Assembly (NCBI RefSeq): GCF_029227855.1
Contig: NZ_CP074356.1
Length of the DNA stretch: 64,000 bases
DNA from: Escherichia coli
Lineage (GTDB): Bacteria > Pseudomonadota > Gammaproteobacteria > Enterobacterales > Enterobacteriaceae
Direction: 5' to 3' (one strand)
The notes below the pieces were generated by a model. That model had not been told where the DNA came from. It searched no databases and was given only the letters and a program-made list of their open reading frames with translations. The position numbers and the translations under genes were made by a program. Positions 7,859 through 10,750 of this stretch are shown here, piece after piece. Position 1 is the first letter of the stretch, and each line of letters starts with the position of its first letter.

Positions 7859-10750
7859 TTAAATAACTTTCCAGCGGATGGAAAAAAGCTCGGTGATATC
7901 CGTTTTTTGCTTCATCCGCTCTTCAAGGGCACTGATGAGTTCATCCCGCTTGTCAGCGATCTCATCTTCAATGTCAAAAATTTCCATACGTTGGCGTTTC
8001 TGCTGCCGTTCCAGTAGCTTCAGCTTTTCCTGGTTTTGCTTTTGTTCTTCCATCGATTGCGCCAGTCTGGCTTCTCGCTTTAACGACTTGATTTGCATTT
8101 TGGTATCGCGTAATGCTTCTTCCGCCGCAAAGATCATATCTTCAGCCCATTTTTCCAGCTTATCTCTTTCAGCTTCAAAAAGGACATTGTTCTGCTCCAG
8201 AACTTCCGCAAGTCTGGCGTCAATTTGCCTGTTCTTGAGTAAGATCAAGTCATCAGGTAATGCATCTGAACTTGCCGAATTATCCAGCTTTTCGTTGGTT
8301 ATTGCAGACAAGTTGAACAGACGTTTACAAGCTTCACCATCTACCACACGTCCGTTGTCAGTTTTTGCGGTAAAGACTAAAAATTGCTGCCTGTTAAACG
8401 CATCAACAGTAAGCAAATTTAGTGTTAACCACCCTGATTGCCCTTTCAGCTGCTCAGCCACCGAGACTTTCGTTGTGTGGTTACTGTAATCGAAGATGAC
8501 TTCAGCTGTTTTCGTCTCCTGGACCTTAGCCCCCTCAATGACGTACTCACCCAGCGGATGATTGATCCGATATGCAAAACTGTGGTGATCCTGCATTTGT
8601 AACGCACTATTTTGCCTACCATCTTTGCGCAACAGCTGGTACTGCCCGACAGGCAGTTCATTTACTGATTCACGTAAAGTGAAACGATGATGCTCATGAT
8701 CAAAATCAGCATATTGTTTGAGCTGCTGACAGGTCACGGCCCAAAACCAACGACCGACTTTATCCAGACGCTCCCGAGCTTCATCAAGCCTTATTTTAAG
8801 GATATCGTGAATATCTTCATCAAAATGCTCAAGCAACTGTTCTTGCGTCTTCTGCATCTTGAGATTGATTTCATCTTCCAGCTCTTTCTGCAACCTTTCA
8901 AAAGCCAGCTCTATCTCCTCGGGGGTACGGCATGACTCATAAATTGACTGGATCCTTTTTTCAAAATCCACACCATTTTCTATGCTGCCAAGCACACTAT
9001 CCGATGCGCCAAACACGCCATCAAACAGGCTGAACTTTTCAGTTAAGAGTTCAAGAACGCGTTGATCGGCCTGGTTTCGCTGATTGAGGAAGTTAATAAC
9101 AACCACATCAAATTTTTGCCCGTATCGGTGACAACGTCCAATACGCTGTTCAATGCGTTGTGGGTTCCAGGGTAAATCGTAATTGATCAGTAGCGAACAA
9201 AATTGCAGGTTCACCCCTTCAGCTGCAGCTTCTGTAGCTATCATGATTTCAGCATGATCTTTGAAGTGGTCGATCAAAGCCGAGCGTTTATCAATTTGCG
9301 CCGACCCGGTAATACGAGAAGATCCCTGATATTCCTCGCGCCATTGCTGGTAGATCTTGTTTGCCTGCGGTGTATTGTTTGTGCCACTAAAGGTTACTAC
9401 TTTCCCCTGGTAGCCATTGTTTTCCAGAAAATGTGCAAGATACTGTTGAGTTCGCATTGACTCCGTGAAGATGATGACTTTTTTTGCAGCCCCCATTTCG
9501 GCAAGCTGTGCAAAACCTTGCTCCAGGCCAGAAAGCAACTCTTTTGATTTGGTATCAGTGCCAATCTGTTCTGCTTTGACAATGAGTGATTCCAGCTCAT
9601 TGATTTCTGCCTGAAGCGCGTCTGAATCGACAACTTTGCACTCGGTATCTAAAGCCACTGATTCGGCATCTTCCACGATGTCATCTTCAAGATCGTCATC
9701 CATTATGATCTGTTGGATGATGTTCATATCATCTTCAACGATACCTTCCAGCTTTAACCTTTCTAAACGACTCTTAAGGATCTGCAAGTTATTCAATACA
9801 GCTTTCGTACTTGAGGAAAGTAGCTTTCTGAGAATAAGCCCCGTCAGATGCCGGTGTCGTTTTGGTAAGGCATAGCTATCCTCACGTTCAAGCAATTTTT
9901 GTACGCGTTCATAAAGATCCTGCTCCTGTTCGCTCGGATAGAAAGGAATAGTGATCGCTTTACGTTCTGTATACTTGATGTACTCCAGCACATTCTTGCG
10001 TAAAGTTCGTTTGATAAAACGCGACAATCGCCCCTTCAACTCCGCAATATCGCTATCTGCCTGCATATATTGCTTTCTGAACGCTTTAACTTCGCCGAAG
10101 GTATGTTCATCTATAAGCGTCGACATGCCATACAGTTCCATTAACGAATTCTGTAAAGGCGTTGCGGTCAGTAGTAATTTTTTCCGCCCATCAAGCGCAC
10201 GCTTTAACGCTTGCCCCATTTTGTTACTTTCTCGATGAGCATTACGCAGTTTATGGGCTTCGTCGATAACAACCAGATCCCACATTTCAGCCACCAATTT
10301 TTCTTCTAACCGAGCAGCATAGTGGTATGACATGATAGTGATCGATTTATTATTTAAGGGATTATGGATCCCTTCTTTTTGAAGCTGGCTATACGTTTTC
10401 GCGTCCAACACCTGAGAAGGTAGATTGAACTTTTCCTGTAACTCGCTCGCCCATTGGCGACGCAGTGAAGCAGGACAAATGATCAACAGTTTACGTTTTC
10501 TTTCAGCCCACAACTGGCAAAGCACTAACCCCGCTTCAATGGTTTTACCTAAACCAACTTCATCGGCAAGCACAACACCTTTGCTTAGCGGATTTTCAAT
10601 AGCAAAAAGAGCCGCCTCAATTTGATGAGGATTTAGATCTACGCTTGCATCAAACAGCGATTGAGACAGACGGTCCACCCCATTGTTTGAATGGAGAATG
10701 GAAAGTTCATGCGCAAAATATTTCGCATGATAAGGTGTTGTACCAATCAT
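7859..10750 (-). CDS. SNF2-family (Swi2/Snf2) DEAH-box helicase with coiled-coil-rich C-terminal extension (963 aa)
   Basis: Motif I LADEVGLGKT, motif II VVIDEAHKLRN, motif III LLLTATPLQNSL, motif VI QRIGRCHRYGQ; C-terminal ~150 aa rich in E/K/R/Q heptad-like repeats. N-terminus does not match RapA as I recall it. Confidence 0.85.
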   Translation of the reverse strand: MIGTTPYHAKYFAHELSILHSNNGVDRLSQSLFDASVDLNPHQIEAALFAIENPLSKGVVLADEVGLGKTIEAGLVLCQLWAERKRKLLIICPASLRRQWASELQEKFNLPSQVLDAKTYSQLQKEGIHNPLNNKSITIMSYHYAARLEEKLVAEMWDLVVIDEAHKLRNAHRESNKMGQALKRALDGRKKLLLTATPLQNSLMELYGMSTLIDEHTFGEVKAFRKQYMQADSDIAELKGRLSRFIKRTLRKNVLEYIKYTERKAITIPFYPSEQEQDLYERVQKLLEREDSYALPKRHRHLTGLILRKLLSSSTKAVLNNLQILKSRLERLKLEGIVEDDMNIIQQIIMDDDLEDDIVEDAESVALDTECKVVDSDALQAEINELESLIVKAEQIGTDTKSKELLSGLEQGFAQLAEMGAAKKVIIFTESMRTQQYLAHFLENNGYQGKVVTFSGTNNTPQANKIYQQWREEYQGSSRITGSAQIDKRSALIDHFKDHAEIMIATEAAAEGVNLQFCSLLINYDLPWNPQRIEQRIGRCHRYGQKFDVVVINFLNQRNQADQRVLELLTEKFSLFDGVFGASDSVLGSIENGVDFEKRIQSIYESCRTPEEIELAFERLQKELEDEINLKMQKTQEQLLEHFDEDIHDILKIRLDEARERLDKVGRWFWAVTCQQLKQYADFDHEHHRFTLRESVNELPVGQYQLLRKDGRQNSALQMQDHHSFAYRINHPLGEYVIEGAKVQETKTAEVIFDYSNHTTKVSVAEQLKGQSGWLTLNLLTVDAFNRQQFLVFTAKTDNGRVVDGEACKRLFNLSAITNEKLDNSASSDALPDDLILLKNRQIDARLAEVLEQNNVLFEAERDKLEKWAEDMIFAAEEALRDTKMQIKSLKREARLAQSMEEQKQNQEKLKLLERQQKRQRMEIFDIEDEIADKRDELISALEERMKQKTDITELFSIRWKVI

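Follow-up and report, generated by a model that had tools for sequence, protein, structure and literature searches.

An SNF2-family helicase encoded with Type III-like mod and res genes in Escherichia coli: a probable third component of a restriction-modification cassette

Type III restriction-modification (R-M) enzymes are textbook two-subunit machines: Mod recognizes and methylates an asymmetric site, Res cuts DNA only when bound to Mod, and communication between sites proceeds by ATP-triggered passive sliding. By the canonical definition, two subunits suffice for activity, cleavage requires ATP and a pair of unmethylated sites in inverse orientation, and the asymmetric site is hemimethylated; a conserved third gene departs from this definition. 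The subject of this report is a cassette in which a gene for an SNF2-family helicase precedes Type III-like mod and res genes, located in a 64,000-nucleotide stretch of Escherichia coli DNA (contig NZ_CP074356.1 of RefSeq assembly GCF_029227855.1; the whole stretch is hereafter the window). A search of the literature and a look-up of the RefSeq accessions returned no description of a system combining an SNF2 protein with Type III Mod and Res, nor any mention of the three protein accessions; a Type III-like R-M system with a dedicated SNF2 subunit, which the SNF2-Mod-Res triad would represent, is not previously described in the literature found.

The ATPase core of the E. coli protein is most similar to DrmD_b, a form of the DrmD helicase of the DISARM defense system. 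In class 1 DISARM, drmD and drmMI are adjacent to drmA, drmB, and drmC, and DrmMI is encoded after DrmD (10.1101/2021.12.28.474362). Joint deletion of drmD and drmMI, in which the two genes were not separated, lowered the protection that a Serratia DISARM system provides against one phage (10.1101/2021.12.28.474362), and the function of DrmD was listed as not available in a 2024 paper (PMC11232893). The initial annotation of the window, made from the letters and the open reading frames (ORFs), had described a stand-alone SNF2 helicase that is not RapA and resembles DrmD but has different partner genes. The analysis presented here identifies these partners as Type III-like Mod and Res, with which a DrmD-like SNF2 protein carrying its own C-terminal module is regularly associated and co-evolves, pointing to an overlooked three-component R-M architecture.

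The SNF2 protein and its partner genes

The SNF2-family helicase gene is a single minus-strand ORF with an ATG start (7859..10750, 963 amino acids [aa]), and its product (WP_000580534.1; RefSeq name "SNF2-related protein") combines a DrmD_b-like ATPase core with a family-specific C-terminal module, as delimited by the ORF and by Pfam, NCBIfam, and PADLOC. Pfam places SNF2-rel_dom at residues 42–289 (8.5e-37) and Helicase_C at residues 437–544 (2.7e-19), which bears out the original assignment to the SNF2 family. The ATPase/translocase core (aa 31–680; 8711..10660, minus strand) consists of two RecA-like lobes with all four motifs that had been quoted as intact, GLGKT (aa 66), DEAH (aa 163), TATPLQN (aa 195), and QRIGRCHRYGQ (aa 535), each of them invariant across 35 homologues of 61–87% identity; it also carries an acidic helical insertion at about aa 290–420. 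No nuclease or other effector domain was found in the protein by Pfam, in the AlphaFold model, or by Foldseek against AFDB50, and comparison with PHROGs gave matches to generic helicase and methylase families only. Motifs and domains together indicate a real, intact SNF2 motor protein.

The description of this gene as stand-alone did not hold. The mod gene starts (at 7838) 20 nt past the SNF2 stop codon and res starts 2 nt past the mod stop codon, so that the minus strand holds a tight operon that reads SNF2, mod, res with SNF2 in the promoter-proximal position, an order that is conserved elsewhere (see below). The three genes have a guanine-plus-cytosine content of 36–45%, versus 52–57% in the flanks.

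The Type III-like mod gene (4717..7838, minus strand) would encode an N6_N4 DNA methyltransferase of 1040 aa if intact and is a frameshifted pseudogene here, split in the window into ORFs 6474–7853 and 4717–6399, in which the PADLOC MTase_III model PDLC03646 is covered at profile positions 1–458 and 486–1057. The intact allele of E. coli E24377A (WP_000049824.1, 1040 aa) matches Pfam PF01555 (N6_N4_Mtase) at residues 489–812 and EcoP15I Mod (4zcf_A, 1.7e-39); DPPY and FAGSG are visible in the Mod translation, and neither Pfam nor the PDB gives a match to its first ~470 residues. The res gene (1334..4714, minus strand; 1126 aa) encodes a superfamily 2 (SF2) helicase fused to a PD-(D/E)xK-like nuclease. 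Over its whole length the product fits PADLOC REase_III PDLC03654 (2325.9 bits), Pfam ResIII is matched at residues 167–293, and 16 homologues (36–83% identity) keep its Walker A motif ATGSGKT, DEGH, motif VI QLFGRGVRLKG, and a C-terminal FyPDF…idPkG signature that is typical of PD-(D/E)xK nucleases. Because Res has no sequence-level match among solved structures in the PDB, EcoP15I Res included, it forms a divergent branch. The pair comprises two of the features that define Type III R-M: a beta-class N6/N4 Mod, recognized by PF01555, EcoP15I Mod, and MTase_III, and, directly after mod, a gene for an SF2 ATPase with a C-terminal PD-(D/E)xK nuclease. At the level of sequence, the family conserves every catalytic motif of its three proteins: those of the SNF2 and Res ATPases, of the Res nuclease, and of the Mod methyltransferase.

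Pairwise alignment with the intact E24377A allele traces the mod frameshift to a 1-bp deletion that shortens a homopolymer tract on the gene strand from A7 to A6 (6480..6485, minus strand), a defect that the initial annotation had missed. When an 81-nt probe over the tract was compared with complete E. coli genomes, 31 of the 33 that matched carried A7 and two carried A6 (H22 and MS 21-1), and RefSeq labels mod "frameshifted" in MS 21-1. A rare on/off slip of mod is conceivable, but the tract is short and A6 occurs in just two of the 33 genomes, so that programmed phase variation is less likely than a simple loss-of-function mutation or a fault in assembly. Since the frameshift removes Mod, which Type III systems need for both protection and target recognition, the copy of the cassette in the window is probably inactive or switched off. 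Loss of Mod would also account for the tolerance of intact res and SNF2 genes, in keeping with a Res that needs Mod to bind its target.

The C-terminal part of the SNF2 protein was modeled with AlphaFold (residues 599–963, from a 67-sequence alignment; model numbering plus 598 gives protein numbering) with a predicted local distance difference test score (pLDDT) of 89.4 and a predicted template modeling score of 0.71. In this model, a long helix (aa 610–676) precedes a beta-rich domain (aa 681–819; 8294..8710, minus strand; pLDDT mostly 82–97, falling to ~64 near aa 709–718), followed by a long, charged, antiparallel helical hairpin (aa 833–946; 7913..8254, minus strand; helices 833–896 and 900–946) and, after it, a terminal beta hairpin (aa 949–962, …ELFSIRWKVI; 7865..7906, minus strand). 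E, K, R, Q, and D make up 54% of residues 833–945, versus 36% of the whole protein, and this segment contains neither Pro nor Gly. About 25 positions of aa 850–960 are invariant in the 35 homologues, as are F956 and W960 of the terminal hairpin. By prediction and conservation, then, the C-terminus is a structured, conserved module and not low-complexity sequence. Foldseek matches to it in AFDB50 are confined to members or fragments of the same SNF2 family, and the module is common to no annotated family outside it; the alignment of two homologues with the NCBIfam DrmD model NF038317 reached near the C-terminus, hinting that the module may be related to the C-terminus of canonical DrmD.

The same region had been read as a charged coiled coil of ~150 residues with heptad-like repeats that might serve oligomerization or partner binding. 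Its charged and helical character stands, with the hairpin spanning ~113 residues, not 150. A 3.5-residue hydrophobic periodicity was not significant against shuffled sequences in the helical C-terminus (p about 0.27 and 0.08), and the classical heptad coiled coil was dropped from consideration. The hairpin is predicted to be intramolecular, which argues against a classical oligomerizing heptad coiled coil and leaves oligomerization unsupported; partner binding via the charged helices is plausible. A 203-aa ORF on the opposite strand (7878–8489), with a Ser/Leu/Cys/Phe-rich translation, overlaps the E/K-rich SNF2 coding stretch and is read as an antisense by-product of E/K-rich codons.

Distribution of the cassette and its genomic setting

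Relatives of the SNF2 protein were sought in a collection of one genome per species, where at least 564 stretches were confirmed. Full-length homologues that include the C-terminal module are very widespread: those of 60–87% identity occur in Enterobacter, Salmonella, Vibrio, Aeromonas, Pseudoalteromonas, Legionella, and Desulfurispira; among the 150 listed representatives of 50%-identity clusters, most align over nearly the full length, with overall identities of 35–64%. In Legionella pneumophila, Vibrio cyclitrophicus, and Desulfurispira natronophila, the SNF2 gene is followed by genes for an N6_N4_Mtase of 1030–1132 aa and a ResIII protein of 1065–1124 aa.

The neighborhood of the gene was surveyed in a census of 80 loci from more than 10 phyla, in which ORFs were called in the fetched loci and compared with profiles for which the E. 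coli proteins, together with two classical Type III Res proteins, served as seeds. Full-length SNF2 proteins with the same C-terminus were encoded in 75 of these loci, and 47 of the 75 had at least 7 kb of downstream sequence and were considered informative. Mod and Res both follow SNF2 on the same strand in 39 of the 47, with the mod start overlapping the SNF2 stop codon in five of the 39; counting three further loci with a Mod, 42 have Mod. One informative locus (L022) has a Type III Res gene upstream of SNF2, and another (L009) has a Type I hsdM-hsdS-hsdR operon beside it, in front of which the SNF2 protein is fused at its N-terminus to an AddA-like helicase-nuclease (UvrD plus PD-(D/E)xK; 1995 aa; L009 3736–9723). 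An AddB-like gene accompanies this fused protein, and a Desulfurispira locus (L004, 1149–7066) has an AddAB-like pair without fusion, separated from SNF2-Mod-Res by its position four genes upstream.

Two architectures recur in these loci. In the E. coli type both Mod and Res are long; the commoner type has a classical Mod of 550–700 aa and a Res of 880–1000 aa that matches PADLOC REase_III PDLC03647 or PDLC03648. In many short-type loci the space between SNF2 and mod holds known defense genes, namely PD-Lambda-2_B, PDC-S02 (DUF1016-type PD-DExK), AbiU, an LmuB-like ATPase, and PDC-S68 (for example in L023, L030, L053, L057, L075, and L083), and the SNF2…mod-res cassette seems to act as a landing pad for defense cargo. 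In the Pasteurellaceae, the gene order is Mod-Res-SNF2. A crude neighbor-joining tree of the helicase core, without support values, groups long-Mod loci with the E. coli SNF2 protein and places short-Mod loci in another large clade, with three exceptions; RapA, against which a phylogenetic check had been advised, is a remote outgroup. Because the SNF2 tree tracks the type of the partner Mod, the helicase appears to co-evolve with its R-M partner. The contigs of sister lineages with other C-termini (P0206, P0208, P0255) are too short to show gene context.

The cassette is also carried by plasmids. An HTH-SNF2-Mod-Res arrangement, preceded by a small helix-turn-helix (HTH) gene, is found on conjugative IncF plasmids of Klebsiella, as exemplified by K. 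pneumoniae plasmid NZ_CP023488.1 (L090, 8760–18512; compare window 1334–12345), and homologous SNF2 genes with an adjacent HTH gene are present on Salmonella and E. coli plasmids. In L090 the genes ssb, psiB, and psiA are close to the plasmid cassette, and DUF932 and DUF5983 genes come after it; genes of both these kinds are also found upstream of the cassette in the E. coli island, which suggests exchange between plasmid and island backbones. The small HTH gene overlaps the SNF2 start in Legionella, Vibrio, and Klebsiella plasmids (HTH_17 in Legionella and Vibrio). A tblastn search with the Legionella and Vibrio HTH_17 proteins and the Klebsiella plasmid HTH proteins found nothing in window 10700–11700, which also lacks an ORF of this kind; the E. 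coli copy may therefore be regulated differently. About 900 bp upstream of SNF2 (window 10751–11650) hold only remnants, annotated by RefSeq as two pseudogene fragments, one of them an HTH regulator lacking its N-terminus.

In the window, the cassette lies at the far end of a roughly 58-kb island integrated at the tRNA-Leu(CAA) gene leuX (58230–58314, minus strand), a locus that has been reviewed as the most highly occupied E. coli defense hotspot, number 37 (PMC12707154). E24377A matches window 1–12000 with three mismatches and one 1-bp indel, and among 5426 complete E. coli genomes, 135 contain at least 80% of this region. The cassette region is accessory DNA, not core genome, and placement in a housekeeping clade with core-genome synteny, against which the initial reading was to be judged, is excluded. 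In sum, SNF2, mod, and res form a conserved, co-evolving, horizontally mobile unit found in defense contexts.

Neighbors of the cassette include CbtA/YeeU-family toxin-antitoxin genes, an antirestriction gene, and Ag43. Adjoining it is a Type IV-like gene for a phosphorothioated-DNA-binding HNH restriction endonuclease (19–672, plus strand; NCBIfam NF045808, 329.7 bits, profile positions 69–284) that begins about 200 nt before the window start; an additional HNH pseudogene lies just upstream of it in E24377A. Convergent with res is a gene for a hypothetical protein of 100 aa (WP_000421875.1; 985–1287, plus strand) with no match in PADLOC, NCBIfam, or PHROGs. Records matching window 39–64 kb carry annotations there for group II intron reverse transcriptases, an IS3 element, and a TOPRIM/DUF927 protein.

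Proposed role of the SNF2 protein and competing explanations

The SNF2 protein is probably an obligate or auxiliary subunit of a Type III-like R-M defense cassette, a reading favored by the close spacing of the three genes, the identities of the partners, the synteny in distant taxa and on plasmids, the co-evolution with Mod, the gene fusion in L009, the defense setting, and the conservation of the ATPase motifs and C-terminal module. By homology, Mod would be a beta-class N6-adenine methyltransferase with an N-terminal extension of ~470 aa that recognizes a short asymmetric site and methylates host DNA; Res, following Type III enzymology, would cut unmethylated incoming DNA only if held by Mod; and the SNF2 protein, by comparison with RapA and chromatin remodelers, would act as an ATP-driven translocase or remodeler of double-stranded DNA. 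It may dock on the Mod/Res complex or on DNA via its beta domain and helical hairpin, adding directional translocation or protein clearing to passive one-dimensional sliding; such a motor could bring site-bound complexes together for cleavage of phage DNA that is linear or coated with protein, and so improve restriction of phages and plasmids. Directed translocation or roadblock clearance is the preferred, though tentative, specific role of the motor. As a close second role, the SNF2 protein may give Mod access to host DNA and thereby complete self-methylation.

Several points weigh against assigning the SNF2 protein to the R-M system. No helicase of this sort is needed by canonical Type III enzymes. 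In about 10% of informative loci neither a Mod nor a Res gene could be detected nearby (L036, where SNF2 adjoins CRISPR I-E, L045, and L079), and a metagenomic homologue (L008) looks solitary, so the helicase may act alone in some contexts. Unrelated genes separate SNF2 from mod in many loci, and translational coupling is not universal. Docking of the SNF2 protein on Mod/Res is inferred from synteny and co-phylogeny only, the latter drawn from the crude tree described above. Finally, the mod frameshift could be a sequencing error, yet it is present in two independent complete assemblies.

Among the alternatives, the one that survives best, though it is rather unlikely, is that the SNF2 protein serves modification: as a bacterial analogue of DDM1/LSH, which help eukaryotic DNA methyltransferases, it would remodel protein-covered host DNA so that Mod methylates every site and self-cleavage is avoided. 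A methyltransferase gene is the most constant neighbor of the SNF2 lineage whatever the R-M type, be it a long or short Type III Mod, the Type I HsdM directly after the fused SNF2 protein, or a Type IIG enzyme after a divergent relative, and SNF2 usually precedes mod, not res; DrmMI likewise follows DrmD in class 1 DISARM (10.1101/2021.12.28.474362). The Mod-Res-SNF2 order of the Pasteurellaceae and the cargo genes often found between SNF2 and mod do not fit this explanation, and the weakened protection against one phage after joint deletion of drmD and drmMI in Serratia speaks for a role in defense, although the two genes were not separated (10.1101/2021.12.28.474362).

It is improbable that the gene encodes an independent single-gene helicase defense, or has some other autonomous function, and merely lies beside an R-M system. 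Defense islands do mix unrelated systems, single-protein SNF2 defenses such as HmaA exist (PMC11232893), and L008, L036, L045, and L079 lack nearby Mod and Res genes. Nevertheless, partner type, order, and strand recur in 39–42 of the 47 informative loci, across many phyla as well as on plasmids; stop and start codons overlap in several loci; the SNF2 phylogeny follows partner type; and the SNF2 protein has no nuclease or other effector domain.

A remnant or variant of class 1 DISARM, in which DrmD and DrmMI have lost DrmA, DrmB, and DrmC, is very improbable, even though the DrmD models are the best profile matches and a helicase gene followed by an adenine methyltransferase gene recalls class 1 DISARM (10.1101/2021.12.28.474362). 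The SNF2 protein matches PADLOC DrmD PDLC02619 at 1.3e-199 but falls below both NCBIfam cutoffs, scoring 666.7 bits against DrmD_b (NF038318, cutoff 950) and 294.4 bits against DrmD (NF038317, cutoff 610); the DrmD_b match covers aa 31–678 of 963 and stops there. In the RefSeq annotation of E24377A, no drmA, drmB (DUF1998), or drmC (PLD) gene was found within 12 kb on either side of the cassette, the genes following SNF2 are typed by PADLOC as MTase_III and REase_III only, and Pfam gives PF01555 only in Mod, with no DrmMI-type domain (pfam13659). The partner is an EcoP15I-like Type III Mod, a Type III-like Res follows, and the triad is conserved across phyla and so is no decay product; the census also found no homologue with the same C-terminal module before drmA-drmB-drmC. 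Furthermore, P0258, which passes the DrmD_b cutoff (1318.5 bits) and is 42% identical to the E. coli SNF2 protein over aa 32–668 only, itself precedes a Type III Mod (PDLC03636) and a Type III Res (PDLC03648; L007, 10001–16210, where the contig ends inside res). This one readable locus hints at a link of the entire DrmD_b-like clade with Type III R-M in place of drmABC, but a single locus is too little for such a claim; the DISARM label of the NCBIfam DrmD_b model may need review. The E. coli cassette, as judged from its gene content, is not DISARM; the initial view that the helicase resembles DrmD in the company of different partner genes was correct.

A housekeeping RapA-like RNA polymerase recycling factor is refuted by family score, locus, and sporadic distribution, despite RapA being the closest solved structure and some public records naming plasmid homologues "RapA": the NCBIfam RapA model (NF003426) scores 167 bits against a cutoff of 576, with its best stretch at aa 30–263, the profile match begins at about position 145 so that the RapA N-terminal region is lacking, and the genuine rapA of E24377A occupies its usual rluA-rapA-polB locus (62164–65070) while the SNF2 gene sits on a low-GC mobile island with the sparse distribution given above, all in line with the first reading of the protein as not RapA.

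It is conceivable, if doubtful, that there exists a large, unnamed R-M class with an SNF2 remodeler as the obligatory third subunit of Type III, and occasionally Type I or IIG, enzymes. In such a class the motor could replace passive one-dimensional sliding by directed movement along DNA or by the removal of roadblocks, defeating phage tricks such as site-orientation bias or DNA-coating proteins, or, alternatively, could be a bacterial counterpart of DDM1/LSH that opens protein-bound DNA to the methyltransferase. Proteins labeled DISARM "DrmD_b" would then belong to this class, and a simple three-gene system of E. coli would allow the part that DrmD plays in DISARM to be tested. Current annotation seems to split one system in two: PADLOC models label the partners as Type III MTase and REase and the helicase as DrmD, tools built on these models would tend to report R-M Type III plus an orphan DrmD-like gene, and NCBI calls the sister clade "DISARM DrmD". 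E24377A offers a compact, intact E. coli cassette for learning what SNF2 motors add to methylation-based immunity, and the SNF2-Mod-Res cassette is also present on clinical IncF plasmids.

Comparison with known systems

RapA is the closest solved structure to the SNF2 protein (phmmer 3.4e-36 over the N-lobe; Foldseek 1.2e-18) and, as a bacterial SNF2 double-stranded-DNA translocase that displaces protein from DNA, offers a mechanistic analogy. Identity between the two is 16–17%, the SNF2 protein has no RNA polymerase-binding N-terminal region and a different C-terminus, and RapA belongs to the core genome whereas the E. coli SNF2 gene is mobile and sporadic. A common SNF2 core also links the protein to HmaA, ZorD (Zorya I), BrxHI/BrxHII (BREX), and DpdE (Dpd), which are motors of DNA-targeting defense systems, several of them based on methylation or DNA modification. 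These matches (PADLOC E-values 1e-26 to 1e-75) are far weaker than that to DrmD, and the partner genes of these systems were not found at the cassette; HmaA and ZorD, moreover, contain a fused nuclease (NOV_C and Mrr-like, respectively) and the E. coli SNF2 protein does not. The HmaA model matches the SNF2 core only (7.6e-58, best stretch aa 35–473); PADLOC gave no HmaB or HmaC match among the cassette partners, and Pfam no NOV_C in the SNF2 protein.

DrmD of class 1 DISARM gives the best profile match of all families over the ATPase core, and its gene, too, is directly upstream of an adenine methyltransferase gene. The E. coli protein differs in scoring below both curated cutoffs and in having another module as its C-terminal 285 residues, and the two systems differ in their partners, which are Type III Mod and Res here and DrmMI (pfam13659), DrmA, DrmB (DUF1998), and DrmC (PLD) in DISARM.

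The closest likeness in partner genes is to Type III R-M systems such as EcoP15I and EcoP1I (Mod2Res1–2), with which the cassette has in common a mod-res pair in the same order, a Mod homologous to EcoP15I Mod, and a Res that combines an SF2 ATPase with a PD-(D/E)xK-like motif at the C-terminus and fits the PADLOC REase_III models; the cassette also tolerates the loss of mod, which accords with a dependence of Res on Mod. In contrast to canonical Type III R-M, the E. coli-subtype Res is ~150 aa longer and has no sequence-level PDB match, the E. coli-subtype Mod is ~400 aa longer owing to an N-terminal extension without Pfam or PDB match, and the cassette has a conserved third gene, SNF2, before mod.

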